Shown here piece by piece: positions 412-17,081 of a stretch of 56,836 nt of DNA. The first letter of the stretch is position 1, and each line of letters begins with the position of its first letter. Source of the DNA: Minisyncoccia bacterium (GTDB lineage: Bacteria > Patescibacteriota > Minisyncoccia > Phycocordibacterales > UBA918); assembly GCA_964229335.1 (NCBI GenBank), contig CAXRCZ010000013.1, forward strand, positions 1 to 56,836, read 5' to 3'. Position numbers and translations under genes: made by a program. The notes under the pieces were generated by a model. It was not told the origin of the DNA and did no database searches. It saw nothing but the letters and a program-made list of their open reading frames with translations.

Positions 412-520
412 AATTGTTTTTAATTATTAAATAAATAAGTTGACTCTAATCTGTTTTGTACCCTACCATTTTTTATTGATTTGTAAAGCTATTTTGCGGC
501 TATCTATCACGCGCAGTATT

Positions 521-557
521 GAAAATAAAAATCCGGACATGCCGGATTTTTATTTTC
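521..557 (-). terminator. Intrinsic terminator after rplB
   Basis: gaaaataaaaatccgg-acatg-ccggatttttattttc inverted repeat 8 nt past the rplB stop. Confidence 0.8.
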
Positions 558-565
558 TAAACTTG

Positions 566-1426
566 CTACTTGCGACTTCGCATCAATTTACCTGGCTTAC
601 GTCGAGAAACAATCATGCTGTTTGAGTATTTCTTTGGTGAGCGACTCTTTTGTCCCTTACCAGTTGGGCGACCTTGCTTGGTACGTTGTCGTCGGTGACC
701 ACGAGGTGACTTTCCTTCACCACCACCATGTGGGTGGTCTACGGCGTTGCGAGCAGCACCACGAGTTTTCGGTCGAAGACCCATGTGCCGTGCGCGTCCG
801 GCCTTACCAATGTCTACCAATCGGTGTTCTTCGTTAGAAACTTCGCCGATAGTAGCCCACGCCTTGTTTGAAACCTTGCGGATTTCGGTTGAAGGCATTT
901 TGAGAGTGGTGTGACGTGCATCTTGAGCCACTACTTCAATGTGGTTACCAGCTGAACGAGCTAACTTGGCACCCGCACCTGGTCGGACTTCGACGTTGTA
1001 GACGAAGGTACCGACTGGGATAGCTGAGAGTGGTAGCTTGTTACCAATCTTTACCTTGGCTGTTTCGGAAGCCACGATTTGATCGCCTACCGCTAGCTTT
1101 TGTGGCGCTAGGATGTAGCGACGTTCACCGTCCTTGTAGCATACAAGGGCAATGAAGCCTGAGCGGTATGGATCGTATTCAATCGTTTCTACCACTGCTG
1201 GTACTTCGAGCTTGTTGTACTTGAAGTCGATTTGGCGATAGGTGCGCTTGTTACCAGCTCCACGGTAGTGGGTGGTAATGCGGCCTTGGCTGTTGCGACC
1301 ACCAGTTGAGCGTCCACCTTTAGTCAGAGACTTGTGTGGGTTGCTTTTGGTAGTGCTTAGCTTTTTCTTGTATTCAATCACTGAGCCGTCACGACGACCC
1401 GGTGAGGTTGGTTTGTATTTCTTCAT
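566..1426 (-). CDS. rplB: 50S ribosomal protein L2
   Basis: YKPTSPGRR, GRNSQGRIT, IEYDPYRS, ARNAVDHPHGGGEG motifs. Confidence 0.99.
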   Translation of the reverse strand: MKKYKPTSPGRRDGSVIEYKKKLSTTKSNPHKSLTKGGRSTGGRNSQGRITTHYRGAGNKRTYRQIDFKYNKLEVPAVVETIEYDPYRSGFIALVCYKDGERRYILAPQKLAVGDQIVASETAKVKIGNKLPLSAIPVGTFVYNVEVRPGAGAKLARSAGNHIEVVAQDARHTTLKMPSTEIRKVSNKAWATIGEVSNEEHRLVDIGKAGRARHMGLRPKTRGAARNAVDHPHGGGEGKSPRGHRRQRTKQGRPTGKGQKSRSPKKYSNSMIVSRRKPGKLMRSRK

Positions 1427-1499
1427 AATGTTTTGGTTAGAAACTAGTGAGTTAAACTCTTATCTTCCTAACTAGTAATGTATTCGTAATTTGGTTTCA

Positions 1500-1601
1500 A
1501 TTTAAGTGCAGTACGAGGCCGTAAGTCTTGAATTTTATGAGGTAGGCCTTGTAGCCTTTCGATTAAAATTCTAGTCTTACAAACGAAGTAATGTGCTAAA
1601 T
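1500..1601. repeat. Translation-gene 3' hairpin element, copy 1 (after rplW)
   Basis: Long imperfect hairpin with internal-loop motifs gtacgaggc / aaacgaagta related to four other copies. Confidence 0.55.
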
Positions 1602-1970
1602 TTACACCAAATTAATTGTGTCGCCTTTCTTAAGGTACACATACGCTTTCTTCATCCCTGGGACGTGTTTCATCCGTCCGCGACTACCGACAAAGCGTTT
1701 ATCAGGTTTTTTGTTGACGATGTTTACCTTCACCGGCGTCACCTTGTAGAGAGCTTTGACTGCATCACGTACCTGATACTTGTTGGCATCTTTGCGAACT
1801 GTAAATGTATACACATTGTGTTCACCTTGAACCACGCTTTTTTCAGATAGTCTCGGGCGAACGAGCACATCTTCAAGAGTGTGGTTAGTAGCCAATGCTG
1901 GTGCGCTTTTGGCAGTCTTTTTAGCACTCTGCTTCTTTTCTGAATCTGTCTTTTTTCCAAAGAGAGCCAT
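1602..1970 (-). CDS. rplW: 50S ribosomal protein L23 with basic N-terminal extension
   Basis: RPRLSEKS, YTFTV, ANKYQVRDAV, KKAYVYL; position between rplD and rplB. Confidence 0.97.
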   Translation of the reverse strand: MALFGKKTDSEKKQSAKKTAKSAPALATNHTLEDVLVRPRLSEKSVVQGEHNVYTFTVRKDANKYQVRDAVKALYKVTPVKVNIVNKKPDKRFVGSRGRMKHVPGMKKAYVYLKKGDTINLV

Positions 1971-1971
1971 A

Positions 1972-2652
1972 CTAATTTGACTTAGAGATAGTAGCCACTC
2001 GCTTTTCGATCACTTCGAGTGAGCTAGTCGGATCAGCTACTATCACATACTTGTAAGTAAGGAGTTCAACCGGGTTGACGTCCTTGGCTTGTACAACTTC
2101 GATATTGCCAAAGTTGCGAAAGCTTTTTTCGGTACTAAGATTACGCTCTGGCAAAATTACCAGCGCGCTGTTTTTTCGCTTGGTAGCCATCTCAACATTA
2201 CCTGAACCATTAGCTAGGGCAGCGAAGATAGTTTTTGCTTCGGCAGTTTTTGGTGCTTCAAGTGCCAGACTGTCTACGAATACTAGTTCGTTGTCTGCTA
2301 GCTTCTTGGATAGGACGCTGGCTAGCGCCTTGGCTCGTGCCTTCTTGTTGATTTTGACTGAGTAGTCTCGTTCATTTCGTGGTCCGAAAGTAACTCCACC
2401 ACCAGTCCAGATTGGTGAACGGCGAGAACCGTGTCTAGCTCGACCAGTTCCCTTTTGACGCCATGGTTTTTTACCACCACCACGTACTTCACTACGGTCT
2501 TTGGTGTGTGCAGTGTTGGCGCGCGCATTGCTTTGCATACCAACCACCACTTCATGTACTAGGTCTGGATTCCAAGCAACTCCAAACACGCTTTCTGGCA
2601 AGGTTACCTTGCCGCTTTCTTTTCCTTCTTTTGAGAATAGTTTTGCGTTCAT
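1972..2652 (-). CDS. rplD: 50S ribosomal protein L4
   Basis: TKDRSEVRGGGKKPWRQKGTGRARHGS, GGGVTFGP. Confidence 0.99.
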   Translation of the reverse strand: MNAKLFSKEGKESGKVTLPESVFGVAWNPDLVHEVVVGMQSNARANTAHTKDRSEVRGGGKKPWRQKGTGRARHGSRRSPIWTGGGVTFGPRNERDYSVKINKKARAKALASVLSKKLADNELVFVDSLALEAPKTAEAKTIFAALANGSGNVEMATKRKNSALVILPERNLSTEKSFRNFGNIEVVQAKDVNPVELLTYKYVIVADPTSSLEVIEKRVATISKSN

Positions 2653-2666
2653 ATTGTTTTTGTTAC

Positions 2667-3278
2667 TTATGATCCGTAGACCTCTACTACTGTTCCTTTT
2701 CGACCTGGTACTGCACCTGAAACCAACAAAAGATTTTCGTCTTTGTTGACTTGCAGGACTTTTAGATTCTTCACGCTTACTGTCTCTCCACCCATACGTC
2801 CAGCCATGCGAGTACCTTTGAGTACTCGAGCATTACCAGTAGCACCAATAGAACCTGGCTCGCGTTCAGAGTGTTTTTGACCATGAGAGCGGCGACCGCC
2901 TTTGAAACCATGTCGCTTTACTACTCCCTGGAATCCTTTTCCTTTAGAAGTAGCTGATACGGTAATGGTGTCTCCAGGCTCAAATGCCGACACGTCTACA
3001 GTCGCTCCTTTTTCGAGGGTGATAGTATCACCTTCTTTCGCTCGTACTTCGCGAGCGATAGCTATAGCTCCACCAAAGTGCCCTTTTTGCGCTTTGGCTA
3101 CGCGGTGGTCTTTTTGGGTTCCACCAGCAAATTGCACGGCTTCGTAACCGTCTTGTTCAGCAGTTTTTACCTGTGAGACAGTTAGCGGTGTTGCTTTGAG
3201 CACAGTGGCTGCAACACATACTCCGTCTTCGGTGAAGACTTGTGTCATTCCGGTTTTGGTTCCTAAAATAAACTTCAT
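2667..3278 (-). CDS. rplC: 50S ribosomal protein L3 (start reassigned to MKFILGTK)
   Basis: ILGTKTGMTQVF, SKGKGFQGVVKRH, MAGRMG, GAVPG. Confidence 0.99.
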   Translation of the reverse strand: MKFILGTKTGMTQVFTEDGVCVAATVLKATPLTVSQVKTAEQDGYEAVQFAGGTQKDHRVAKAQKGHFGGAIAIAREVRAKEGDTITLEKGATVDVSAFEPGDTITVSATSKGKGFQGVVKRHGFKGGRRSHGQKHSEREPGSIGATGNARVLKGTRMAGRMGGETVSVKNLKVLQVNKDENLLLVSGAVPGRKGTVVEVYGS

Positions 3279-3312
3279 TTCTTTGAACCTAATTGATAAT
3301 ACGCTTTCAATC

Positions 3313-3431
3313 AGACCCATAATCGACAAACCGCGCTGGTAGCGCAAGCGCCCCAGGAGCACTTCCAATGCTTTCAGCAAAGGGGTGCACAGGCACTAAC
3401 GCTACAACAGCGCGGTTTGTGCCCATTGGTC
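3313..3431. ncRNA. Long GC-rich rod-like hairpin in the rplC 5' leader (candidate r-leader or small RNA)
   Basis: 13-bp perfect pairing 3326-3338/3408-3420, plus 3339-3344/3400-3405 and 3348-3354/3382-3388. Confidence 0.55.
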
Positions 3432-3474
3432 TTTCTGCAGAGCAGAAGTACGTAGGTCTTTAAAAGCTGTGCGT

Positions 3475-3502
3475 AGTATACAAATATTTTTATTAATTGC
3501 AA
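3475..3502 (-). promoter_or_regulatory. Sigma70-type promoter for rplC-rplD-rplW-rplB
   Basis: TTGCAA-16 bp-TATACT on the minus strand. Confidence 0.65.
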
Positions 3503-4411
3503 CTACTCTAATGACGTAAGGTACTTGGAGTGACTATCAGCAAATAGTTTTGCGTATTCTGCTTGAATTTTCTCCGTGATTGAATCTTTTTCGGGACAAT
3601 GTATCTTTCTCGCGTCAATTTCGACAATTGGGGTGATGTAAGCTGAGGTGCCACAGGCGAATACTTCATCAGCTACATATAGTTCGGTTAAATCTATAGC
3701 TCGCTCTTTTGTTTCTATACCTAGTTCTGTGGCTATTTCTAAGATAGTTTTCCGATTAATTCCTTCGAGAATATCGCTCGCTTCGTGAGGTGTAGACAAT
3801 ACTCCGTCACGGACTATGAATATATTGGCGGCACTTAGTTCGCATACGTGCCCATCCACATCTAAAAAGAGGCAGTCATCATAGCCGCTGTCGAGCGCAT
3901 CTTGTTTGCCGAGCACTGAGTTAACATACGCTCCATTAACTTTTGCTCTCGAAGGAATGGCATAATCAGGAATTCTCCGCCAGACACTAGTTTTTATCCG
4001 GGCAGTCTCAGGCAGGATTGAGGCAGCTTCGTAGATAAAAAGACTAACTGAAGTATGTAGACCTCGGGAGCGAGTACCAGGAACCAATTCATCTACATGC
4101 ACACTAGCTCGTACGAACACAGTTTCACTTACGTCATTTGCAGCTATTAGCTCATTTACCGCTTTCTTGAACCGAACAAAACTCCATTCTTCAGCAAAAG
4201 TGTTGATACCGATTATCTTGGCTGAGCGCAGTAGTCTATTGAAGTGATCTTCAATTCTAAATACCATTGGCTTTCCTTCAATAAACACAACAGGAAACAC
4301 TGTATACACACTCAAGCCGTACAGCACTGCTGAACTGGCGACGCTTACGTTAGCCTGTTCTATCGGGACAATATTTTCACCAAAAAAAGCGTTTTTATAT
4401 ACCTTTGCCAT
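3503..4411 (-). CDS. ilvE: Class IV PLP aminotransferase (branched-chain aminotransferase-like)
   Basis: VLYGLSVY, FRIEDHFNRL, AKVNGAYVNS (PLP lysine), ELSAANIF, ILEGINR, ADEVFACGT. Confidence 0.85.
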   Translation of the reverse strand: MAKVYKNAFFGENIVPIEQANVSVASSAVLYGLSVYTVFPVVFIEGKPMVFRIEDHFNRLLRSAKIIGINTFAEEWSFVRFKKAVNELIAANDVSETVFVRASVHVDELVPGTRSRGLHTSVSLFIYEAASILPETARIKTSVWRRIPDYAIPSRAKVNGAYVNSVLGKQDALDSGYDDCLFLDVDGHVCELSAANIFIVRDGVLSTPHEASDILEGINRKTILEIATELGIETKERAIDLTELYVADEVFACGTSAYITPIVEIDARKIHCPEKDSITEKIQAEYAKLFADSHSKYLTSLE

Positions 4412-4519
4412 CTAAATATTATACATACACATAACAGTCTCTGTATAGGATTGATTTGATTTTTTGGTGAAATATGGTTTTATTCAACAAGCTTTAACCC
4501 CAACAAACGAGGTGAGAAG

Positions 4520-5068
4520 ATGACAGTTCTTTCAAACAACAAGCGTCGGCTGGTTTTCGGCTGGTTTTCCTGGAGCAATATCCAGTTCCAGTGGACGGTG
4601 GTCGGCATCGTTGGCGGTCTTCTGATCGCTGGTCTGGCGCTATGGTTTCAGACCTTTTCCTGGTCAAATGGTGCTTTTGCAGTTGCTATAACAATAATCG
4701 GTACAATTTTCGCTGCTCAGTTTTTGTGGGCAGCGTTATGGTTTGATTTCTACACACGCAATCCCGAACGTCGTTCATTTTTTGTGAAAAGATGGGAGAG
4801 ATTGAAATGGCTCTACTGGGAATATTATACCTATGGAGAAGTTACCCACTTCAAAGGCACAGCAGTTATCGAGCGGAGGCGTCCAGATGGACTTTATGCT
4901 ATCTACCGTTTTGACGGTGTCGCAGTCGCTCTGAGGCGAGATACTGGAGAGACCAACGTACCAGCTTGGTGGCCTAAAGGAGAAGATATCGTTGCTCCGG
5001 AAGTCGATCCTCATCGAGTAAGAGACTTGTCACGTATAGCATTACATCGCACCGACCTGTATGGTTAG
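4520..5068 (+). CDS. Orphan membrane protein (two hydrophobic helices)
   Basis: 182 aa ORF, SD gaggtg before ATG, two hydrophobic segments. Confidence 0.75.
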   Translation: MTVLSNNKRRLVFGWFSWSNIQFQWTVVGIVGGLLIAGLALWFQTFSWSNGAFAVAITIIGTIFAAQFLWAALWFDFYTRNPERRSFFVKRWERLKWLYWEYYTYGEVTHFKGTAVIERRRPDGLYAIYRFDGVAVALRRDTGETNVPAWWPKGEDIVAPEVDPHRVRDLSRIALHRTDLYG

Positions 5069-5142
5069 TTGTTATTGATTTATTGGTTGCAACATACCAA
5101 TCAGTGTGTTTTAGTGTAATCCCACTCAGGAGGAGAGAAAAT

Positions 5143-5295
5143 ATGAGTGTAGCTCTTTTTACCAAACCATTGCGTTTGCGTGACGAAGAAGATGAATACG
5201 TGGAGCAGATGCGAAAGCAGTTTGCTCAGCGTCCGCGCATCTGCGTGCCCGGCGCGGGTAACGTGAAGTATCCCAACGCCTTCAGCGCGTGCTGA
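5143..5295 (+). CDS. Orphan 50-aa protein
   Basis: SD aggagg upstream of ATG 5143; gccggc hairpin plus T-tract at about 5318-5350. Confidence 0.65.
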   Translation: MSVALFTKPLRLRDEEDEYVEQMRKQFAQRPRICVPGAGNVKYPNAFSAC

Positions 5296-5387
5296 TTCTT
5301 TAACACGGGATAACAAAGGCCGGCTGCCTATACAGGCGCCGGCTTTTTCTTTTTCTGATAAAATACCAGTAGAAAGAGAGGTGGGAT

Positions 5388-5675
5388 ATGCCTACTTGGG
5401 TCATGGTTATTTTTTCGATTGTCGGCGCCGTAGCTATACTGTGGTTTCTCTACCGCATCCTTCAGTACATTAGCTACTGCAAAGCTATCGGTGTCTGCAA
5501 GAAGCAGTCAGGGTTGGCTGTGGTCCAAAACCCGGATACACGTTTGTGGGAAGCCACCAGACCACCTGATAAGTTTGACGACCGATACAGACGACCTGGT
5601 ATACTAGCTTCAGTTGCTGGTGCCGATGGTTCTTACGTTATCGAAACGTACAGAATCAACTCCGCCGTTTTCTGA
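5388..5675 (+). CDS. Orphan protein with N-terminal TM helix
   Basis: SD gaggtg; hydrophobic N-terminus; terminator gcggcctcgga...tccgaggccgc at 5683-5710. Confidence 0.75.
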   Translation: MPTWVMVIFSIVGAVAILWFLYRILQYISYCKAIGVCKKQSGLAVVQNPDTRLWEATRPPDKFDDRYRRPGILASVAGADGSYVIETYRINSAVF

Positions 5676-5755
5676 ACAACTTGCGGCCTCGGATTTGTTT
5701 CCGAGGCCGCTTTCTGTATGTATATATTTAATTATATAATTCTTTTTATAATTCA

Positions 5756-5794
5756 GCCAAACAAAAATCCCCCGTTGGGGGATTTTTGTTTGGC
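5756..5794 (-). terminator. Intrinsic terminator ending the tuf-rpsJ transcript
   Basis: gccaaacaaaaatccccc-gtt-gggggatttttgtttggc, 18-bp perfect stem. Confidence 0.8.
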
Positions 5795-5801
5795 AACTTT
5801 C

Positions 5802-5925
5802 GTCGTTGCCAAAATGAGATGAAGTGCACGACGCACCAGAAGTTGAGCGCGAGCCGTACTTATTGGTACGGTGAGCGCTTGACTTCGCCAGTGCAACAAA
5901 GCAATTCGCTCATTTTGGTGACGAC
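5802..5925. repeat. Translation-gene 3' hairpin element, copy 2 (after rpsJ)
   Basis: gtcgttgccaaaatgag...ctcattttggtgacgac closing stem; tgcacgacg / caacaaagca loop; apical ccgtac...gtacgg. Confidence 0.75.
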
Positions 5926-5926
5926 A

Positions 5927-6277
5927 CTACATCATCTTTACATCGATGTTCACACCAGACGGCAGTGAGAGGTTCGTGAGAGCCTCTACTACTTTCGGGC
6001 TCGGATTCATGATGTCGATTACACGTTTGTGAGTTCGCATCTCGAATTGTTCTCGCGCGTCCTTATGCACGAAAGTCGAACGATTGACTGTATACTTCTT
6101 GATTTCAGTCGGAAGTGGAATTGGTCCTACTACATTCGCATCAAAGCGTTGTGCAGTGTCCATGATTTGCTTCACCGAGGCATCGAGGATTTTGTGCTCG
6201 TAGGCACGCACTCGAATACGAAGCTTGTTGATCGCTCCTGGTGCTTTTGCGTCTGTTTTTTTTGTTTCTGTTGCCAT
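5927..6277 (-). CDS. rpsJ: 30S ribosomal protein S10
   Basis: LRIRVRAYEHKILD, GPIPLPT, REQFEMRTHKRVIDI. Confidence 0.99.
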   Translation of the reverse strand: MATETKKTDAKAPGAINKLRIRVRAYEHKILDASVKQIMDTAQRFDANVVGPIPLPTEIKKYTVNRSTFVHKDAREQFEMRTHKRVIDIMNPSPKVVEALTNLSLPSGVNIDVKMM

Positions 6278-6329
6278 TTTGTTAAGTTACTTTTTCGAAT
6301 TGGGCAGCCAGCTCCTAAGGGTGCTGAGG

Positions 6330-6424
6330 TTGCCCGAAATGCGAGGCGAAGTGAGGTTTTGGAAGAAGCGGTAGATGACTACCGTGCCGACAAAATCGAA
6401 GCTTCAACGACGCAGATTGGGTAA
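6330..6424. repeat. Translation-gene 3' hairpin element, copy 3 (after tuf)
   Basis: ttgcccga...ttgggtaa closing stem; tgcgaggcg / caacgacgca loop; apical cggtag...ctaccg. Confidence 0.7.
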
Positions 6425-6436
6425 GTATCAGCGCGC

Positions 6437-7627
6437 TTAGGCGATGATTTTGGTTACTACACCAGCCCCAACAGTCTTACCACCTTCACGAATAGCAAAG
6501 TTTTGCTGTTCTTCAAGGGCAACTGGAGCTACCAACTTCACTTTGAAAGTTGCAGTGTCACCAGGCATTACCATTTCTGTACCTTCAGCGAGGGTCACAT
6601 CACCGGTAACGTCAGTAGTTCGGATGTAGAACTGTGGCTTGTAACCTGAGAAGAATGGAGTGTGTCGTCCACCTTCGTCTTTAGATAGTACGTATACTTC
6701 AGCTTCGAATTCTGAGTGTGGAGTTACTGAGCCTTTTTTGGCTAGTACTTGACCACGGTGTACGTCTTCTTTCTTGGTACCGCGAAGAAGGATACCAGCG
6801 TTGTCTCCAGCTTGCGCTTGGTCAAGCTGCTTGTTGAACATTTCTACTCCGGTAACGGTAGTAGTAGTGGTGTCTTTGATACCAACGATTTCTACTTCTT
6901 CACCTACCTTAACGCTTCCTCGTTCTACACGACCAGTTACTACTGTACCGCGTCCTTCAATTGAGAAGATGTCTTCGATTGGCATCAAGAACGGCTTGTC
7001 TAAATCACGTTCTGGAGTTGGGAAGTACTCATCCATTGCGTCAACGAGTTCGATGACTTTGGCTTGGTACTCAGCGTCTCCTTCGAGCGCTTTAAGACCT
7101 GAACCTTTGATGATTGGTGCTTTTTCACCATCGTATCCGTTGGCGGTAAGCATCTCGCGAAGTTCTTCTTCAACGAGCATAAGCATTTCTTCATCATCCA
7201 CCATGTCACACTTGTTGAGGAACACGATGATTTGTGGAACTCCAACTTGCTTCGCAAGCAATACGTGCTCACGAGTTTGAGGCATAGCTCCGTCAGTAGC
7301 GGCTACTACAAGTACCGCGCCGTCCATCTGAGCAGCACCGGTAATCATGTTTTTGATGTAGTCGGCGTGACCAGGCGCATCAATGTGTGCGTAGTGACGA
7401 TTTGGAGTTTCGTACTCTGAGTGAGAAAGAGAGATAGTAATACCACGCGCCTTCTCTTCCGGCGCTTTGTCGATTTCACCTACGTCCTTGACGTTGGCAT
7501 CGTATCCTTCTCCTTTTGCTTTAAGAGAAGTGAGAATCGCCGCTGTAAGAGTAGTCTTACCATGGTCAACGTGACCAATGGTACCTACGTTGATGTGCGG
7601 CTTTGAGCGATCAAATGAATCTGCCAT
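6437..7627 (-). CDS. tuf: Elongation factor Tu (start reassigned to [11 protein letters not shown])
   Basis: [47 protein letters not shown]. Confidence 0.99.
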
Positions 7628-7656
7628 GTAAATACTTAAGTTAATTATAAGATATA

Positions 7657-7821
7657 AACCGCACACATACGCTAAAAGCGGCGTGAGTGTGCACACACCG
7701 CGGCGCGAGAAAGTCGCGCGATGTCTGAACACTCAAGTGTGAAAGATCAAAGTATTGTCTCTCTACATACTCTAGGTATGTAGCGGTGCGGCTATGGTAG
7801 CAGAGAATGACTGTTTTGCAA
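7657..7821 (-). promoter_or_regulatory. tuf promoter and structured 5' leader
   Basis: TTGCAA(7816-7821)-16-TACCAT(7794-7799); leader closed by agccgcac/gtgcggtt with internal hairpins. Confidence 0.65.
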
Positions 7822-7829
7822 GTCCTATA

Positions 7830-7870
7830 GAAGAAGCCGGATGGGGCCCATGGCACCATCCGGCTTCTTC
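7830..7870 (-). terminator. Hairpin separating fusA from tuf
   Basis: gaagaagccggatgg...ccatccggcttcttc 15-bp stem. Confidence 0.7.
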
Positions 7871-7889
7871 GCTTGATTGTGCGTAATTG

Positions 7890-10055
7890 TTACGCTTCCG
7901 CTTTTACACCTCTCGCTTTTTTGATATCTTCAGCCACATTTGGTGGGACGATAGCGTAGTGATCGAATTCCATAGTCATGCTGGCGCGACCTTGGGTCAT
8001 CGAACGTAAGGTGTTGGTGTAGCCAAACATTTCTGATAGTGGAATCTTAGCATTTACAATGGTTTTACCACCAACTTCAGTGGTACTTTCCAGTTGTCCG
8101 CGCTTACTAGAGATATTTCCTTGAATATCACCCATGTATTCTTCCGGAGTACGGACTTCTACCTTCATCACTGGTTCTAGGATTACGGCGTTCGCTTTAG
8201 CCGCAGCATCCTTGAAGGCGTTGATACCAGCTAGTTTAAAGGCGATTTCACTCGAGTCGACATCGTGGTATGAACCATCGTATAGCTCGACAGAAACGTC
8301 TTCCATTTTGTATCCAGCGACGAACCCGCGAGTCATAGCTTCTTTACAACCCTTCATAACAGCTGGGATGTATTCTTGTGGAACAACTCCTCCCTTAATG
8401 CTGTTGATGAATTCGAAGTGATCTTCGCGAGTTACGTTCTTCGCTACTGTTTCATCTTCTCCTAATGGTTCAAGTGGCTTGATGCGAATCTTGACGTGAC
8501 CGTACTGACCACGACCACCAGATTGCTTGATGTATTTATGTTCTGCTTCAGCAGCTCCTTGAATGGTTTCTCGGTAGGCCACCTGTGGAGCACCGATGTC
8601 GGCTTCGACGCCAAACTCTCGCTTCATACGGTCAACAATAATATCGAGGTGAAGCTCACCCATACCGGCGATAATGGTCTCCAGAGTTTCTTCATCAGTT
8701 GAAACACGGAACGTTGGGTCTTCGTCAGACAGACGCTTAAGGGCGGTGCTCATTTTTTCTTGGTCGTTCTTGGTTTTTGGTTCTACGCGCACTGCTACCA
8801 CTGGTTCTGGGAAAGTAATTTGTTCGAGTACGATTGGGTCGCTTTCAGCACATAGAGTGTGCGAAGTCTTTACTTCTTTGATACCTACTGCGGCAGCAAT
8901 TTCTCCGGCGTATACTTCTTCAATTTCTGTTCGCTTATCAGCTTGAAGACGAACGATTCGTCCGATTCGTTCTTTGTTACCGGTTGAGGCATTAAGAATA
9001 TATGAACCAGCTTTCACTGTTCCTGAGTAGACTCGGAAGAAGGCGAGTTGTCCGACGAATTTGTCATCTTGTAGCTTGAAGGCCAGGGCACAGAACGGTT
9101 CTTCGTCAGTCGGTGCTCGTTCGAGAGTGGTTTCTTCGTCACGAGGATCGACTCCTTTAACTGGTGGCAATTCCGCTGGTGATGGGAGGTAGTCTACCAC
9201 CGCGTCGAGTACTAGTTGTACCCCGATGTTCTTGAGGGCTGTACCAGTCATGATTGGGAAGATTTCGTTGGCGATTACAGCCTTGCGAAGAGTTTTCTTG
9301 AGGTCTTCCTTACTTGGTTCTTCCCCTCCTAGGTATGCTTCCATGAGCGCGTCATCATGCTCAACTACTTTTTCAATTAGTTCGCCACGCCATTTTTCGG
9401 CGTCAGCTTGCATGTTTTCTGGAATTTCCTCTTCGGTCACGTCCATTCCCATAGTTCCACCAAAGCGATAGGCTTTCATGGTGATGAGGTCTACGACTCC
9501 GTCCATGCTGTCCTCAGCACCGATTGGTAGTTGGATACGAACCGCTTTTGGTGACAATCGGTCGTGAATAGACTTTACTGAAGCATCGAAATCCGCACCA
9601 AGTTTGTCCATTTTGTTGATGAAACAAATTCGCGGCACGTTGGCTTCGTCAGCGTAGCCCCAGTTGGTTTCAGTTTGTGGTTCTACTCCGGCAGCACCAT
9701 CAAATACTACTACTGCACCGTCGAGTACACGCATCGACCGCTTTACTTCAGCGGTAAAGTCGATGTGTCCAGGAGTATCGATGATGTTAAAGCTGAACAT
9801 CTTATCCTTGTTAGTTCGATCTTCTTCCATGGTCTTAGACCAACTACAAGAAATCGCAGCAGCGGTAATGGTGATACCGCGCTCACGTTCTTGTTCCATC
9901 CAGTCAGTGACAGTAGCACCATCGTGTACTTCACCAATCTTGTGACTCATTCCGGTATAGAAAAGCACTCGTTCAGACGTAGTAGTTTTACCTGCGTCAA
10001 CGTGCGCTACGATACCGAAGTTTCGAAGTTTATTGAGGGGAAATTCTCGGGCCAT
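7890..10055 (-). CDS. fusA: Elongation factor G
   Basis: [45 protein letters not shown]. Confidence 0.99.
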
Positions 10056-10225
10056 AAATAATAGTAAATACTTATATATGTGTGATTATTAAATATACCT
10101 CCCTGATGCGTTCACACAGACCGCATTAGAAAATAGGCCGTTGCGGCCAGACGGCGATACTATACTGTATCTTCACTAAAACAGCAATAAGTGTTATTTT
10201 TTTATTTAGAAGAAGGAGACTCTTG

Positions 10226-10477
10226 ATGGAACGTATAAGTTATGCGGACAAGCTAAGAGCTGCAAAAGTTCTTGGCGATCCCAGGAGACCAATCCAAACA
10301 CTGGTTAGCACCAGACAACGCAAGGAACCTGGGGTTCCTGGGAAAGAAGGCAACAACTCTGAAAGTCTTCGTGAGCGAAGTCGGCGCACCGCTAAGAAGC
10401 GAGCAGGAAGGTTCGTTTTGAGATCTATTTTAGCTTCGGGCTCTAAATTGGCTATTGCAACTTCTGATTCAGAATAA
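10226..10477 (+). CDS. Orphan basic 83-aa protein
   Basis: SD aaggag; terminator cggccggaatcc-tgca-ggattccggccg at 10500-10527. Confidence 0.6.
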   Translation: MERISYADKLRAAKVLGDPRRPIQTLVSTRQRKEPGVPGKEGNNSESLRERSRRTAKKRAGRFVLRSILASGSKLAIATSDSE

Positions 10478-10571
10478 TAATCAATTTGAGCGAAGGTCAC
10501 GGCCGGAATCCTGCAGGATTCCGGCCGCTTTTAATTTTGATGTTAGTTGATTTATATAAAATACGTATCTT

Positions 10572-11885
10572 CTACCACCCTAGCTTATGCATTGCGGCAA
10601 AAACTCGCTCAAAGCCAGCTCGGTTGGCGCCGTCAACGTAGTCGACTTTCTCTCCATCGCTACCATACTGAACACACTGATCGTGGATATGACGCATAAT
10701 CCGGCGTAATTCTTGGTCTATTTGCTCTGGCGTCCAGGCGTAGTGACCAGCGTTTTGCGCCATTTCCATACCTGAAACCGATACCCCACCCGCATTCGCG
10801 GCCTTTCCGGGTCCATACAGCACATCTGATTGGCGAATTACTTTTTGTGCAGCTGCAGTGAGGGGCATATTAGCGCCTTCCACCAACAACTTCGCTGACT
10901 GCAAGACCGCTCCCATATCGCCTTCGTCTAGTTCATTTTGGGTAGCACACGGGAAATATGCCTCAGCTGACACCTCCCAGACCTTGCCCTCATGGTACGT
11001 GGTGTCAGTTATGGTGCAGTCTTTGAGGTCGTGAGTGCGACTTTTTTCTTGCGATACGGTATGAATATCTTCTTTACTAAAACCAGATTCCTTATACAAA
11101 TAGCCATGACGATCGGAAACAGTCAGCACAGTAGTTCCAATGTCGATTAATTTTAAAGCAGTATAGGTAGCCACATTACCAGCACCGGACACCACTGCAC
11201 GCAATGAAGACAGATTAATATCATGCTTGGCTGCCATTGCTTCAGCAAAGTACACTACCCCATGACCAGTCGCCTCAGTGCGGTGACAGCTACCACCAAA
11301 TAATTCATCCTTACCAGTAAGTACACCTTCGTTGGAGTTGGTAATGAGCTTGTACATACCGTAGAGGTAGCCGATTTCCCGTCCACCGACACCAATGTCA
11401 CCAGCTGGCACATCTTTATCTAGGCCGATGTGTTGGTGAAGCTTGACCATAAAGGCTTGGCAAAATGAGCGAATTTCATTGTCACTCTTTCCACGTGGAG
11501 AAAAATCACTGCCTCCTTTGGCTCCCCCGAGCTGCAAGCCGGTAAGGGAATTTTTAAATATTTGCTCAAAGCCGAGGAACTTTAATATATCTTCGTTAAC
11601 GGTCGGGTCAAAACGCAACCCTCCCTTGTATGGCCCAAGCGCCGAGTTAAATTGCACACGATAGCCGAGATTGCTCTGAAGCGCACCGTTGTCATCAATC
11701 CAATCCACTCGAAATGAAATTACTCTCTCTGGCTGCAACAAGCGTTCGAGGCGTCGGTACTCAACCTCTGTCCAATTATCACTCAGTTCATTGAGACTAT
11801 CTAAAAATTCTTTTGTGGCTTGGAGAAAGGTGGGCTGATGCTGATACTTTTCTTTGAGGTCGCTGTAGATAGTATCTAGAGTCAT
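10572..11885 (-). CDS. gdhA: Glutamate dehydrogenase (NADP-specific family)
   Basis: RVQFNSALGPYKGGLRF, GGAKGGSDF, DVPAGDIGVG, PCATQNE, EGANMP, GKAANAGGV. Confidence 0.95.
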   Translation of the reverse strand: MTLDTIYSDLKEKYQHQPTFLQATKEFLDSLNELSDNWTEVEYRRLERLLQPERVISFRVDWIDDNGALQSNLGYRVQFNSALGPYKGGLRFDPTVNEDILKFLGFEQIFKNSLTGLQLGGAKGGSDFSPRGKSDNEIRSFCQAFMVKLHQHIGLDKDVPAGDIGVGGREIGYLYGMYKLITNSNEGVLTGKDELFGGSCHRTEATGHGVVYFAEAMAAKHDINLSSLRAVVSGAGNVATYTALKLIDIGTTVLTVSDRHGYLYKESGFSKEDIHTVSQEKSRTHDLKDCTITDTTYHEGKVWEVSAEAYFPCATQNELDEGDMGAVLQSAKLLVEGANMPLTAAAQKVIRQSDVLYGPGKAANAGGVSVSGMEMAQNAGHYAWTPEQIDQELRRIMRHIHDQCVQYGSDGEKVDYVDGANRAGFERVFAAMHKLGW

Positions 11886-11914
11886 ACGCTTTGTTCTCTC
11901 TAGTCTACCATACG

Positions 11915-11943
11915 AAATCGCGCGTCTTTTGACGCGCGATTTT
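11915..11943 (-). terminator. Terminator after the Lys-rich micro-ORF
   Basis: aaatcgcgcgtc-tttt-gacgcgcgattt. Confidence 0.75.
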
Positions 11944-11957
11944 CTTCACTGGCGAAG

Positions 11958-12011
11958 TTATTTCTTCTTCGGAACTGCTTTTTTAGCTGGAGCTTTCTTT
12001 TTTGTTGCCAT
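11958..12011 (-). CDS. 17-aa Lys/Ala/Pro-rich micro-protein MATKKKAPAKKAVPKKK
   Basis: ATG after an AT-rich stretch, H1-like composition, terminator 14 nt after stop. Confidence 0.55.
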   Translation of the reverse strand: MATKKKAPAKKAVPKKK

Positions 12012-12073
12012 GGCGTATGAATTACTTACTAAGGCACGATACCAGTAGTATGGGGAGCGCCCGCAAACGCAAT

Positions 12074-12286
12074 CACCTCCTTGGCTAGAGTCGTATTTGA
12101 AATCACCACCTGATATCAACCCATCACTTGGTGTTTCGCCAACACCGTATCCCATATTTCGATATAAATAACCTTTCTTCACTCGGTGAACGTTAGTTCT
12201 CCTCAATCATGCAAGCTTATTTTTAAGCGAAATCTGAAATACTTTGGTTTGGCGATGATCCCCAACACGACTCAAGGCTTTCGTGT
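12074..12286 (-). ncRNA. Rod-shaped 190-210 nt structured RNA, 6S-like candidate
   Basis: 23-bp closing helix 12251-12273/12088-12110 with G-U wobbles on the minus strand, central bubble, further inner helices; TATACT at 12293-12298. Confidence 0.6.
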
Positions 12287-12304
12287 ACTACTAGTATAGA
12301 GCGA

Positions 12305-12601
12305 TTATTTTCTTTTGGTTAGATTGCCCTGTGCAGAAGTTTTGACCAATAACTCTTTTTCAGCCCGAGTGAGTTTTTTGATCGCGGCTTCCCTTTTCAT
12401 AGCTTCACTACGAGTAGCAAACGATTCAGTAAAGAATAATTTTACTGGTCCTCTGCCACTGGTATACCGAGCGCCAGCTCCGGATATTCCATTATTATGT
12501 TCTTTAATTCGTCTCTCCACGTCAGTGGTATAACCGGTATATAGCGTACCGTCAGCACACTCAATGATATATACGAAGAATTTAAATTTAGTTTTTGCCA
12601 T
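12305..12601 (-). CDS. GIY-YIG nuclease (UPF0213/YhbQ-like)
   Basis: FVYIIECADGTLYTGYTTDVERRIKEHN, GARYT, AMKREAAIKKL. Confidence 0.93.
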   Translation of the reverse strand: MAKTKFKFFVYIIECADGTLYTGYTTDVERRIKEHNNGISGAGARYTSGRGPVKLFFTESFATRSEAMKREAAIKKLTRAEKELLVKTSAQGNLTKRK

Positions 12602-12706
12602 CAGTAGCTATTATTCTACCTTGCCTTTAACTCATACATTGACTTTTACTAAATTTGTGATATTGTTTTTATAGAGCCCTTTTGAAAAAACTACGGGAGT
12701 TAAAAC

Positions 12707-13042
12707 ATGGAAGCTGCCAACGACATTGAAACGTTCATCGTTTTTGATCCGTTCGACAACACGAATGTCTTCATCACCGCAGACAATGTCTACATTTCTT
12801 CGGGCAAAGAAGAAAGTCAGCGGATATCCGCCGAAACCGGCGAGTACTGCAATATGCAGTTTGGTCCGACGGACCGACTGAAAATCACGATCAATGAGGA
12901 GATGATCTTCATCACTGCCACACATGATTCTCCAAATCATACTCTGCGTCGCATGCTTCAGGCCAAGATCGCTGCTGGCGACGCCAAGCCTACCCAAGAG
13001 CCGGGTCCACTGGTCGAGATCAGAATCCCGCGCGCAGACTAG
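12707..13042 (+). CDS. Orphan 111-aa protein
   Basis: TTGACT-16-TATTGT promoter, SD gggag, terminator aaagcccgg...ccgggcttt at about 13066-13100. Confidence 0.75.
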   Translation: MEAANDIETFIVFDPFDNTNVFITADNVYISSGKEESQRISAETGEYCNMQFGPTDRLKITINEEMIFITATHDSPNHTLRRMLQAKIAAGDAKPTQEPGPLVEIRIPRAD

Positions 13043-13174
13043 GGCAACGATTGTCGTTCAATAACAAAGCCCGGACGGTTGCCTCAACCGCCCGGGCTTT
13101 CTTTGTAAAAAACACAAAACCTCGCACTTATCGAAGGTAAATCAATGTAAAGATTTTGGGAATTAAATGAAAAT

Positions 13175-13762
13175 TTATTTTAGCTCTACCCATAACGGAG
13201 TCATAGTTTGAATATCTAAGTCTCCATACTTGTTTTTTCTCTTTAAATTCTTGGGATAATCACCAAACTCTGTAGAAAACCAACTTAATATTGCGAAACG
13301 ATGGAAATGTTCTTGTATATTACTAATATCAAACTTACAAACAAATCTATACTGCAATCTAAATGTTCCGTCTTTGAAAATTGTATGGTTAATTTTTCCA
13401 TAAAAATTTAAATTATCTTCCGTACCTGGCATGGTCGTTTTTCCAAGACTAATGACGGTAACTTCTACAAACTCTGGAAAATGTAAAGACCAAAAAACAC
13501 CTTCTCTTATTGGCTCTTCTGAGTCATGTCTTAAGATCGGTTCAAAATCAAATTCAAATTTTCCATTTCCACAATTTTTTGCCTTGATTTTATTACATGA
13601 GGTTTCATTGAAGAAAAATTCGACCATCTTTGGTCTTCTTAAGTAGCGCAAATACCTTGGAAGAAAAATAGAACCAATTACAAGAAGTAACAGCCCGCTC
13701 ACAAAATTAGTGATGAACGATTGTAAATCAAAGTATTTCAAATATGATTCTAAATTTTCCAT
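13175..13762 (-). CDS. AT-rich hypothetical protein with N-terminal TM helix
   Basis: 195 aa ORF, visibly lower GC than neighbours. Confidence 0.75.
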   Translation of the reverse strand: MENLESYLKYFDLQSFITNFVSGLLLLVIGSIFLPRYLRYLRRPKMVEFFFNETSCNKIKAKNCGNGKFEFDFEPILRHDSEEPIREGVFWSLHFPEFVEVTVISLGKTTMPGTEDNLNFYGKINHTIFKDGTFRLQYRFVCKFDISNIQEHFHRFAILSWFSTEFGDYPKNLKRKNKYGDLDIQTMTPLWVELK

Positions 13763-13798
13763 ACTTTCGAAATATACTCTTATTTAATGGTAAATCAA

Positions 13799-13902
13799 AT
13801 TTTCAAATGAAATACTAGGCGAGCAGCAAAAAAGCCGCGAGGCGTACTCCTTGTACGATGAGCGGCTTTTTTGTGTACTCAACGAAGTAGTTTGTTGAAA
13901 AT
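13799..13902. repeat. Translation-gene 3' hairpin element, copy 4 (after rpsG)
   Basis: attttcaa...ttgaaaat closing stem; tactaggcg / caacgaagta loop; apical cgtac...gtacg. Confidence 0.75.
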
Positions 13903-13908
13903 GGGATT

Positions 13909-14379
13909 TTACCAAGCGAAGTGGGCGAAAGCACGGTTAGCCTCAGCCATCTTGTGCGTATCTTCCTTCTTCTTCACTGCATCCCCTTCTTCTTTAGCAG
14001 CTAGCATGAGCTCTTTGGCCAATGACTTGTGCATTGGAGTACCTTTTTGCTTGCGAGCAGCGGCAATGATCCAGCGTAGAGCTAGTGAAAGTCGTCGTTC
14101 AGGACGAACTTCTCGTGGTACTTGGTAGTTGGCTCCACCAACTCGGCGAGAGCGAACCTCCATCAGTGGTCCAGCGTTGCGCAGAGCATTGTTGAAGACT
14201 TCTAGTGGATCCCCACCTTCTTTGTCGTTTTTGATAATTTCAAACGCCCCGTACACAATCTTGCGGGCGGTCTCTTTTTGACCGCGAAGCATGATGTAGT
14301 TGATGAGTCGTTCGACTTCGACTGAACCGTATTGGATGTCAGCCTTTACTTCTGGACGTTTCTTAATTGGTCGTCGCAT
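13909..14379 (-). CDS. rpsG: 30S ribosomal protein S7
   Basis: [28 protein letters not shown]. Confidence 0.99.
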
Positions 14380-14520
14380 AACTTATTTTGTTAAGTAATC
14401 GCGAGAGATGAGGAGTGTTATGGAAACATTCTTCATTCTTCGCATAATGGTCCTCTGCTGGTGCAGATACCAATCGTTATCTGTAGCGAATATAAACTAT
14501 TAATTTTTGTTGTAAGGATT

Positions 14521-14931
14521 CTATCCTTTTGGTGCTTTTGCCCCGTACTTAGAGCGCCCTCGACGTCGGTCGTCGACTCCTCCAGCGTCGTATTTACCAC
14601 GCACTACAGTGTAGTTCACACCGATGTCTTTTACGCGTCCACCACGGACGAGTACTACGGAGTGTTCCTGTAGGTTGTGCTTGATACCTGGGATGTAGGC
14701 AGTAATTTCCTGACCGTTTGAAAGTCGGACACGAGCAATTTTTCGAATCGCTGAGTTCGGCTTTCGTGGAGTCTTGGTAGTTACACGCGTACATACGCCA
14801 CGCTTAAAAGGTGAGTAGTAGCGGTTTGGTTGGTTCTTGATTTTGTTAAATCCAGACTCCAAGGCCGCTGTTTTACTCTTGCGCGCTTTGTCGGTTCGCT
14901 TCTTGCGGGTTAATTGTTGAATTGTTGCCAT
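14521..14931 (-). CDS. rpsL: 30S ribosomal protein S12 (start reassigned to MATIQQL)
   Basis: [43 protein letters not shown]. Confidence 0.99.
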
Positions 14932-14974
14932 ATGTAGCCCGCACACTCTACTATAGTTAGATAAAATTGCAAAC

Positions 14975-15061
14975 AAAAAGACCGCTTGATGCGGTCGGGG
15001 CGTGCAGGGGGCGAAGCGCAAACTCGGTGGAGGCCCTGCACGCATTTGGCCCTCCCCGAGT
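14975..15061 (-). ncRNA. Small GC-rich pseudoknot/bistable element ending in a terminator
   Basis: Two crossing helices (ctcggggagg/cctccaccgag and gcgtgcaggg/ccctgcacgc) then gaccgc-atcaa-gcggtc-ttttt. Confidence 0.5.
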
Positions 15062-15091
15062 AACTGTAATCTTTCTATTTATGAGAATATC

Positions 15092-15730
15092 TTACCCCCC
15101 AATCAAAAGCAAGGTAATCCAGCGGGTAAGTTCGTAGAGTGGTTGGCCGAGAAATACTACAAAGAGAATGATTACCAGAATGAACCCGAAAGCAATGTTG
15201 CGCTCGAAGTACACCCGGAAATTGTCGTATTTCATGGCTAGTGAAGGCGGGAGGAGTTTGGGTAGGATTTTTGACCCATCAAGCGGCGGAATTGGAAGTA
15301 GGTTAAAGAACGCCAAGAAGATATTCAAAATTATAATTTGTACTGATAGCGTCACAAAGGTATCAGATAGCGCCCACACTTCAGCCGCTCGTACTAGCAA
15401 TGCAAAGACGAGCGCAATAGCGATGTTAGCCAATGGACCGGCGATAGCCACGATAGCTTCGCCCCATTTCCTCCACTTGGTGAAGTTATATGGGTTGTAT
15501 GGTACTGGTTTGGCCGCTCCGAATAATATCGGTGAGCCAGTTAATACCAATAGTCCTGGCAAAATCACCGACATCATTGGGTCTAAGTGGACAATCGGAT
15601 TAGCCGATAGTCGGCCCTGCAGCCGAGCAGTTGGGTCACCCAGCCAGTTGGCAGCATAGCCGTGCGCCATTTCGTGTAGCACTACCGAAAGAATAAGTGC
15701 CAGTATAAGTACGATAAATATTGGATCCAT
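15092..15730 (-). CDS. Site-2 protease, peptidase M50
   Basis: HEMAHG, AGPLAN, FNLLPIPPLDGSK. Confidence 0.95.
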   Translation of the reverse strand: MDPIFIVLILALILSVVLHEMAHGYAANWLGDPTARLQGRLSANPIVHLDPMMSVILPGLLVLTGSPILFGAAKPVPYNPYNFTKWRKWGEAIVAIAGPLANIAIALVFALLVRAAEVWALSDTFVTLSVQIIILNIFLAFFNLLPIPPLDGSKILPKLLPPSLAMKYDNFRVYFERNIAFGFILVIILFVVFLGQPLYELTRWITLLLIGG

Positions 15731-15812
15731 AACGGACTAATACTATCGTACTGTTCGGTAGTTGCAAAATTAGGACACCGTGGTAGGATATCGCCACTTA
15801 AATACTTTATTT

Positions 15813-16055
15813 ATGGCAAAGCAATGTGACATCACCGGCAAGAAAACCCAAATCGGGGGCCGCTACAGTAACCGCACTCGTGCGACGCAATTTAACCCGT
15901 GCGGCAAAACTACTCGTCAGCCAAATCTCCAAAAGAAACGTATCTACGTTCCAGAGATTGATAAGACCGTAACTATTAACGTGTCTACCAAAGGCTTGCG
16001 CACTATCGCTAAAAATGGCGCGTATCAAACTCTAAAAGAAGCCAAACTTATTTAA
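15813..16055 (+). CDS. rpmB: 50S ribosomal protein L28
   Basis: MAKQCDITGK, QPNLQKKR, VSTKGLRTI. Confidence 0.95.
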   Translation: MAKQCDITGKKTQIGGRYSNRTRATQFNPCGKTTRQPNLQKKRIYVPEIDKTVTINVSTKGLRTIAKNGAYQTLKEAKLI

Positions 16056-16176
16056 TTTACCCAAACCACGCACCTCTTCTGCGTTGTCTGCAACAAAATA
16101 CCTCTCGCTGGAGCAAAAGTCCCGCTTGAGGTATTTTCTTTTGACGCCTTGCATACGCACGCGGTTTGAAAAAATT
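16056..16176. repeat. Translation-gene 3' hairpin element, copy 5 (after rpmB, inverted together with its gene)
   Basis: caaacc...ggtttg closing stem; ctgcgttg / cgccttgca loop; aaaatacctc...gaggtatttt. Confidence 0.7.
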
Positions 16177-16211
16177 ACATCAATATAGGCTACGAATGGT
16201 ATTCGGACTCC

Positions 16212-17081
16212 TTACTCTCTCCAGACAGTTTGTCCATCAGAGATAAAAGTAATCGTGCCGTCGATAGCTGTCTGACTTAGAGCAATATCTCTCTCTATCA
16301 CCCGAGCCAACACTTCCCCGGCTGGATGGCCGTAAGAGTTATCAGCGCCGGCTGATACCACCGCATATTTTGGAGCCACTGCATCGAGGAAGGTTTCACT
16401 GGTAGAGGTCTTAGAGCCATGATGTCCGAGTTTCAACACCTGACTAGTAAGCTGCGAGCCGTAGCGTTCCACTAAAGTGTCTTCGATAGAAGCTGGCGCG
16501 TCCCCCGTCAACATAAACGCTGTCTCGCCATAGACCACCCGCAATACAATCGAGGCGGTATTACTTTCCCAATTGGTCTCATCACCAACTGGCGAAAGCA
16601 CCTGCAGATACACCTCGTCATCGAGCACAATTACTTCACCGGCTTCAGCCAGTCGCTCCATCATACCCTCGGCTGCTACCGCGGTGGTTAGGGCAGTCGA
16701 TGCCGCAGTGGGATTGAGATTGCTGGTAGTGATGAGTAAACCTACTTGATACCGGTGCAATACATCAGATAAGCCACCAATGTGATCGAGGTCAGGATGA
16801 GTGGCAATCATCAGGTCTATAGACCGATCTCCAAAAGGTCGCACAGCAGCCATTGAACGCAAGACCGCTGAGCCTTTACCACCATCAATGAGTACCTCAA
16901 TGCCAGAAGGGGTGCGGAGTAGAATGGCATCACCCTGTCCCACATCAAGGAATGAGACTTCGAGACAGTCGCAGTCAGTGGTTAGGTCTGAAAATTGTGG
17001 CATCCAAACCGCCAACGCAAACAAGCTCAAAAAACCAATCAATACCGTTCTAAACCGTGGATTTGCAGTAACCAGACTCAT
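16212..17081 (-). CDS. ComEC-type metallo-beta-lactamase-fold protein (stand-alone C-terminal domain)
   Basis: FLDVGQGDA, THPDLDHIGG, LTGDA, LKLGHHGSKTS, NSYGHP. Confidence 0.93.
   Translation of the reverse strand: MSLVTANPRFRTVLIGFLSLFALAVWMPQFSDLTTDCDCLEVSFLDVGQGDAILLRTPSGIEVLIDGGKGSAVLRSMAAVRPFGDRSIDLMIATHPDLDHIGGLSDVLHRYQVGLLITTSNLNPTAASTALTTAVAAEGMMERLAEAGEVIVLDDEVYLQVLSPVGDETNWESNTASIVLRVVYGETAFMLTGDAPASIEDTLVERYGSQLTSQVLKLGHHGSKTSTSETFLDAVAPKYAVVSAGADNSYGHPAGEVLARVIERDIALSQTAIDGTITFISDGQTVWRE

Follow-up and report, generated by a model that had tools for sequence, protein, structure and literature searches.

In a stretch of 56,836 nucleotides (nt) from a Minisyncoccia bacterium of the Patescibacteriota (order Phycocordibacterales, UBA918; assembly GCA_964229335.1, contig CAXRCZ010000013.1, positions 1 to 56,836, hereafter the window), five long hairpins stand at the ends of translation genes. 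The host genes, whose names were confirmed by Pfam, are rplW (1602–1970), rpsJ (5927–6277), tuf (6437–7732 as the open reading frame is listed, the true start being later) and rpsG (13909–14379) on the minus strand, and rpmB (15780–16055) on the plus strand. An earlier note on this sequence had reported a hairpin after each of these genes together with two loop motifs, and the hairpins and both motifs were found where it had placed them. However, it gave their length as 95–125 nt and their start as 0–12 nt after the stop codon, whereas the full hairpins, when folded together with their flanks, measure 124–132 nt, and in four of the five the stop codon lies wholly or partly inside. The rplW copy (1487–1614, purine-loop strand plus and antisense to rplW) takes the stop codon (1602–1604) and the last codons into its stem, and its far arm mirrors 10 of the 12 final gene bases. 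The rpsJ copy (5802–5925, plus strand) starts 1 nt past the TAG and is followed, in the sense of the messenger RNA (mRNA), by a terminator-like hairpin at 5768–5782. The tuf copy (6312–6443, plus) occupies the tuf-rpsJ spacer, and the base of its stem pairs across the tuf stop (6437–6439); in the rpsG copy (13788–13914, plus) the far arm pairs with the last codon and the stop. The rpmB copy (16053–16177, minus) is inverted together with its gene.

On the purine-loop strand, which is the strand antisense to the host, each window copy displays an outer loop formed by the boxes CnAGGCG and CAACGmAG, and within it an inner module in which a short stem and a variable loop stand between GAG and TGA. 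In the rpsG copy the two boxes lie at 13815–13821 and 13880–13887 and the inner module, which is common to the ERIC repeats considered below, at 13839–13861, all on the plus strand. In the other copies CnAGGCG lies at 1514–1520, 5827–5833 and 6342–6348 (plus) and 16145–16151 (minus), and CAACGmAG at 1581–1588, 5894–5901 and 6405–6412 (plus) and 16079–16086 (minus). The conserved internal loop described earlier is therefore present, but the second conserved loop, the GAG...TGA module with its short GTAC-type stem, had been overlooked. Folding of both strands favored the antisense strand in all five copies (z from -3.8 to -10.5). The window has five occurrences of the two-box motif, whereas 200 Markov resamples average 0.125 (maximum 2), a contrast flattered by the fact that the motif was derived from these five copies themselves. 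The statement that the window holds no further copy was upheld with a covariance model, the next score being 13.4 bits against 66–91 bits, and a search of Rfam, which had been suggested as a check, gave no family that matches the window copies. We conclude that the hairpin observation is real and well beyond chance.

The family extends over the source genome (741 kb in 13 contigs, labelled G000). A blind hairpin scan of 119 gaps yielded further copies, and a covariance model built from 13 copies of this genome, with no enterobacterial sequence inside (model R1), returned 19 matches, all with E 4e-9 or better. Eighteen of these are distinct, five of them outside the training set, because contig C7 (126,716 nt) is an exact inverted self-duplicate whose first half is the reverse complement of its second; this duplication is likely an assembly artefact, and it inflates both counts and the contamination figure. 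Thirteen copies are thereby added to the five of the window. Seventeen of the eighteen follow a stop codon and have their purine-loop strand antisense; the remaining one is sense-oriented and immediately precedes rpsS, where a split-off operon begins. The S10 operon is broken after rplB (window 566–1426), and rpsS and the rest of it restart elsewhere (G000:C11:1183–1872) behind a promoter-like site and this sense-oriented copy. A glutamate dehydrogenase-like gene (window 10572–11885, minus) lies between rpsG and fusA and appears to mark another break, in the str operon. Lone half-elements bracketing a gene were found neither in the source genome nor in 400 kb of a relative (G026).

The hairpin could be read as a shared control element of split ribosomal-protein operons, as the earlier note had offered. 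Eight of the seventeen hosts are translation genes according to Pfam, and the eighteenth copy precedes rpsS, but the other nine hosts are secY, nusG, nusB, khpA, ssb, a Mur ligase gene, mreB, a pilin-like gene and one gene without a family. Furthermore, one relative has 79–81 matches behind many kinds of gene, numbers among relatives run from 0 to 79, homologues in other phyla adjoin metabolic genes, and the ribosomal-protein sites are often empty, so this explanation is largely refuted by the host list and we regard it as almost certainly wrong. The genome-wide scan sustains the bias in orientation and not a restriction to translation genes. The association with highly expressed genes fared better, since the codon usage of 16 hosts (rpsJ dropped out of open reading frame calling) is nearer to that of translation genes than is the codon usage of 596 other genes (p 2e-6), as also holds for the nine non-translation hosts alone (p 0.003). 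The nusB host is a NusB-NUDIX fusion (G000:C4:50413–51306), followed by the element copy and then by an RNase III-like gene. Other long hairpins behind stops receive no score from R1 (G000:C4:55925–56075, C4:30310–30460, C4:39075–39235, C10:14040–14200 and C7:22790–22970); the first two, one of them behind smc, have an inner motif in common and may be a second class.

R1 also has matches in 28 of the 30 other genomes of the genus (0–79 per genome) and, under stricter filters with 28 candidates scored in each, in 12 of 140 other genomes of the phylum. The 400 kb of G026 contain 42 copies with 33 calls next to a stop, of which 32 are antisense. The single sense call concerns a copy that at the same time lies antisense to a convergent gene, and the few copies in sense orientation are found at a greater distance from stops or ahead of starts. 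Since all seven hosts in G026 that run head-on to replication, as judged from GC skew, have antisense copies, polarity follows transcription and not replication, as had been proposed from the window. Structure is kept over sequence, with two-sided changes at 29 of 30 pairs in 72 copies, and of 86 copies, 84 have the better fold on the purine strand under RNA and DNA parameters alike. Moreover, G-T exceeds A-C by 31:14 and 34:11 in mostly Watson-Crick columns and by 58:24 in the locus-specific outer arms, which lie outside the paired columns of the model, in agreement with the earlier suggestion that pairing is kept on the antisense strand. Apical loops of the GNRA, UUCG or GNA type were absent from all 137 copies.

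ERIC repeats, known since 1990, serve in the typing of strains. With its filters off, R1 matched the rpsB-tsf spacer of E. coli, and of 19 K-12 loci fetched with this spacer sequence 15 contain full ERIC copies, several of them with the ERIC2 primer sequence. Eight of these 15 copies are matched by R1 over their whole length, all on the same strand (five at E < 0.01; the best with 33 bits, E 3e-6), the best match outside ERIC reaching 13.3 bits, and both loop modules align between the two families. In the reverse direction, a covariance model built from the 15 E. coli ERICs (R2), whose predicted structure is poor, was run on 88.7 kb; its top ten matches are Patescibacteria copies (E 0.0035–0.26), and it matches the rpsG copy at E 0.008 and the rpmB copy at E 0.014. 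In addition, the 127-nt ERIC consensus in Table 1a of PMC2759123 holds both motifs quoted in the earlier note. We are therefore confident that the hairpins belong to a repeat family related to ERIC. The REP-like family that had been proposed stands insofar as this is a dispersed hairpin family, but it is not REP in the strict sense, and the closest named family, ERIC, had not been mentioned.

The resemblance extends to general features. The present element has a median length of 126 nt in 85 copies, against 127 bp for ERIC (also IRU or RU-1) in the descriptions given in PMC2229807 and PMC2759123, and like ERIC, as outlined there, it is a long imperfect hairpin that lies between genes in transcribed regions (transcription being predicted here), often by stop codons. 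Loop modules, reciprocal matches and strand are shared, and among the E. coli copies that lie no more than about 12 nt from a stop, five of seven are antisense. Some copies of the present family contain nested inserts: in several G026 copies an insert with a small conserved hairpin occurs at varied positions and in both orientations (C1 near 21020, 97900 and 138400; C2 near 126900; C3 near 53000). ERIC copies also contain inserts. Against these likenesses, the present family lies far outside the enterobacteria, its copies are about 55% alike compared with 82% for ERIC, its polarity is nearly strict, and its outer arms are locus-specific and often mirror the coding end of the host. The 7-bp terminal inverted repeat shared by ERIC copies is absent, and because of this we file the family as ERIC-related and not as ERIC proper. 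Some rpsJ and tuf sites fit a terminal TA duplication. Hosts ending in TGA make up 2 of 70, against 51 of 428 genes of the source genome, and 2 of 33 against 16 of 231 in G026.

A pattern of the loop boxes recovered at least 121 loci in GTDB genomes. Of the 80 listed loci whose flanks are complete, R1 scores 62 at E 0.5 and 50 at E 0.001. Judged by record titles, carriers among the matches listed include Desulfobacterales and other deltaproteobacteria, Pseudomonas, Halomonas, Bacteroidales, Flavobacteriales and Chlorobium, as well as Chloroflexia, NC10, Clostridia, Sedimentisphaerales, Terriglobia, Peribacteria and Saccharibacteria. In viral contigs, searched with a slightly looser pattern, none of 80 pattern matches score with R1, and the loop pattern alone therefore does not earn an R1 score; the one query of plasmids gave no match. 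Two-sided changes occur at 27 of 30 pairs in 65 multi-phylum matches, in an alignment fitted to the model. By crude open reading frame calls, 28 of 61 such matches lie within 30 nt of a stop, 23 antisense and 5 sense. Their neighbors are housekeeping genes, and the 81 neighboring proteins contain one IS982-type transposase and no recurrent mobile gene. Two open frames between paired copies were assigned no family, among them one of about 190 amino acids in a Desulfatibacillaceae contig (L207:335–973). The literature searched, which excludes most subscription journals, reports neither this family from Patescibacteria nor ERIC as spread over several phyla, and a search of 13 of the 19 Geobacter supplement files of PMC2700814 gave no motif.

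The better folding and the G-U bias of the purine strand would also be expected of a family of antisense small RNAs made from that strand, and two Rfam entries bear on this explanation. V_AS5 (RF02818), described in PMC2665243 as a V. cholerae RNA of 133 nt detected on northern blots, matches four of six E. coli ERIC loci on the purine strand with 44–45 bits, which is below its cut-off of 96 bits, and CssrA (RF02798) starts inside the rpsB-tsf ERIC. Both overlap or resemble ERIC copies on the purine-loop strand (L075:1579–1688; L081, L084, L086 and L089) and may be processed ERIC RNA. However, Rfam files them as single-locus small RNAs, neither matches the window copies, and V_AS5 finds nothing in the source genome. 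The copy that gives rise to CssrA is sense-oriented, so CssrA is explained by processing out of mRNA. Furthermore, promoter-like sites in window positions 1–17000 are at chance level (27 against 23.8), and the RNA tetraloops are missing. An antisense RNA family is in our opinion highly unlikely.

The length of the arm is constrained, although its distance from the gene end is not. Among 65 stop-adjacent copies, 46 have a loop-to-base arm of 21–29 nt, the stop lying 9–33 nt from the loop with little correlation between the two (r 0.10); the whole stop falls within the stem in 46 of the 65, and at least six gene bases do so in 34. Since a terminating ribosome would sit there, an element acting in the message has to be considered, as proposed for Yersinia ERICs: the hairpin would be co-transcribed, the ribosome would open or shield it, a nuclease would set the stability of the upstream message, and both polarity and nearness to the stop would be selected. 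In line with this, the hosts are highly expressed by codon bias, the mRNA strand still folds (mean -39.5 kcal/mol), and orientation-dependent cleavage by RNase E has been reported for ERIC, as cited in PMC2229807 and PMC3049150. On the other hand, the wobbles and the purine-rich conserved loops favor the strand absent from the mRNA, many relatives have these sites empty, and an mRNA-level role explains neither the spread of copies nor the mirroring of the gene by the far arm. We consider it credible but improbable.

This mirroring is best seen at nusG, where the gene end is similar in genomes with a filled and with an empty site. Over 14 filled sites, chosen by eye from 28 readable ends and from related genomes whose kinship inflates tests of this kind, the far arm is complementary to the gene at 61 of 70 variable coding positions against 37 ± 4 by permutation, or 144 of 168 against 122 ± 4 when the register is re-optimised, and in 13 of the 14 the mirror extends to the third, synonymous base of the last codon. 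In seven empty sites only 6–8 of 12 positions are complementary. The mirror also holds for a set of 18 copies whose host genes are mostly different (178 of 216 against 121 ± 6).

Sites and cores turn over. Empty and filled sites occur among relatives at rpsJ, tuf, nusG and rpsG, and across the genus about half to two thirds of the nusG and rpsG sites are filled. The nusG cores are 47% alike, unrelated to the identity of the gene (r 0.00). Between two relatives (G007 and G033) nusG is 94% identical and the far arm is shared, yet the 145 nt behind the stop are 66% alike; rpsG copies are 57% alike where the rpsG genes are 92% alike, and one core in G026 is similar to a copy that lies at a different locus in another genome, G001. 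In two of four rpsG copies compared, the inner module is flipped relative to the outer loop, a trace that template switching within a palindrome would be expected to leave. Between close relatives, cores are swapped or are kept better than the gene.

We propose, with moderate confidence, that the repeat is a non-autonomous, ERIC-related mobile element that is read as a single-stranded hairpin of the template strand and written in by fold-back DNA copying. According to this proposal a protein would read the purine-strand hairpin, and the 3' end of the coding strand near the stop of a busy gene would be extended on the purine strand of a donor copy, which would give the antisense polarity. The donor could be DNA or an excised RNA, for which V_AS5 and CssrA on ERIC loci may be parallels. 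The new strand would then fold back and copy about 12 target bases, which would produce both the mirror arm and the fixed length, and later fold-back events would swap or flip cores. Antisense polarity is likely also the tolerated one, because it places the weaker fold in the mRNA.

A number of observations weigh against this proposal. R1 misses 7 of the 15 ERIC copies and R2 misses 14 of 28 copies (E 5), and a filtered R1 search of the whole E. coli K-12 chromosome returned nothing, the ERIC matches being seen with filters off, so that the kinship with ERIC is distant. A search for a RAYT or TnpA gene flanked by copies had been suggested; at 15 tyrosine-transposase loci there was no strong copy adjoining and one weak match about 1.2 kb away; at 28 GIY-YIG and DDE loci no strong copy adjoined beyond the rpsG copy of the window, and reverse transcriptase does not track copy number. 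The mirror arm may have arisen after insertion by template switching and selection. Finally, copies are kept better than their genes (tuf 98% against 86%, nusG 88% against 83%); together with the excess of G-T in the outer arms, this points to selection at resident sites, for which pure selfish spread has no need. Some resident copies are therefore likely under purifying selection.

The last point is equally what would be expected of a DNA signal kept by the host, in which negative supercoiling behind RNA polymerase would extrude the hairpin where strongly transcribed genes end, and a putative host protein would dock on the template-strand loops for topology, repair or termination, the mirror being produced by template switching and kept by selection. 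The loops are indeed kept across many phyla while the stems covary, polarity follows transcription, the filling of nusG and rpsG sites is substantial, and the missing apical tetraloops and the non-scoring viral matches agree with such a signal. A host function fits less well with the two genomes of the genus that lack a match, with the few matches elsewhere in the phylum and with the range of copy numbers, and flipped inner modules break a structure that is defined on one strand. Moreover, no supercoiling-linked hairpin system of this sort was found in the literature searched. We hold this explanation to be rather unlikely, and return to the proposed mobile element and its fold-back copying.

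Among enzymes that could serve such an element, a TIRYT-like tyrosine (HUH) transposase acting from elsewhere may be a lead. TIRYT-like genes are present in 18 of 31 genomes of the genus, with a median of 24 copies of the element against 6 in the 13 genomes without them (p 2e-4, unadjusted). However, the six copy-richest genomes form one clade, which weakens the link, and over five independent pairs p is about 0.25 (same direction 3.4, opposite 0.0). The TIRYT-like genes (about 200–240 amino acids; G000:C10:10330–11070, locus L359, and L351–L361) are flanked by short perfect hairpins of their own; one such hairpin lies beside the gene, and the motifs tried gave no genome-wide family. Other candidates were rejected. 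Small GIY-YIG genes occur in 31 of 31 genomes, whether copies are present or not, and are not flanked by the element, as is true of the stand-alone 98-amino-acid GIY-YIG nuclease gene of the window (12305–12601, minus). DDE_Tnp_1, the one DDE family searched, occurs in three of 31 genomes, two of them without copies, and reverse transcriptase in nine of 31, among which are both genomes without copies; it was not found in the source genome. According to the review PMC2229807, there is no experimental support for transposases moving ERIC.

Comparison with other known systems places the family in the same way. Like the REP and REPIN repeats mobilised by RAYT or TIRYT (as presented in PMC3733652), it consists of extragenic palindromes downstream of genes that are likely read as single-stranded hairpins, and TIRYT-like genes accompany higher copy number. 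But its unit is 126 nt and not 20–40, its consensus has no GTAG or CGTC foot, the TIRYT genes are flanked by their own hairpins and not by the element, and the link is not significant on independent pairs. A MITE (miniature inverted-repeat transposable element) mobilised by a DDE enzyme was rejected for its lack of conserved shared ends and for the distribution of DDE_Tnp_1. The Ssn nucleases with their NTS/SRM repeats (PMC11893778) are a precedent for a small protein reading a repeated single-stranded DNA hairpin, and the window has a GIY-YIG gene of its own; however, SRMs measure 20–50 nt, that paper does not mention ERIC, and small GIY-YIG genes occur with and without copies and are not flanked by the element, as described above. 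The family may also bear some resemblance to the pneumococcal BOX elements with their boxA and boxC. By the tests run, the family is an ERIC-related variant and not REP/REPIN, a DDE-mobilised MITE or Ssn/SRM.

In conclusion, the presented data reveal the same folded core in Patescibacteria and in many other phyla, and show which of its bases matter: two loops, on one strand, at a fixed length. In near-minimal genomes such repeats fill many gaps in core operons, and they will be misread as regulatory RNAs or leaders. The mirroring of the last host codons by the far arm, synonymous positions included, is a footprint of a copying mechanism that differs from ordinary cut-and-paste. More tentatively, ERIC could be the enterobacterial branch of a pan-bacterial group of elements of about 126 bp without terminal repeats, in which a conserved protein would read two purine-rich loops on a single-stranded hairpin and prime copying from the coding strand where busy genes end, fold-back would leave an inverted target copy of about 12 bases, and many copies would be kept as template-strand DNA signals; we regard this wider view as possible. 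The question of ERIC mobility now becomes testable at the bench in E. coli K-12. If true, this wider view would amount to a mode of transposition that has not been described before, and would answer how ERIC spreads.

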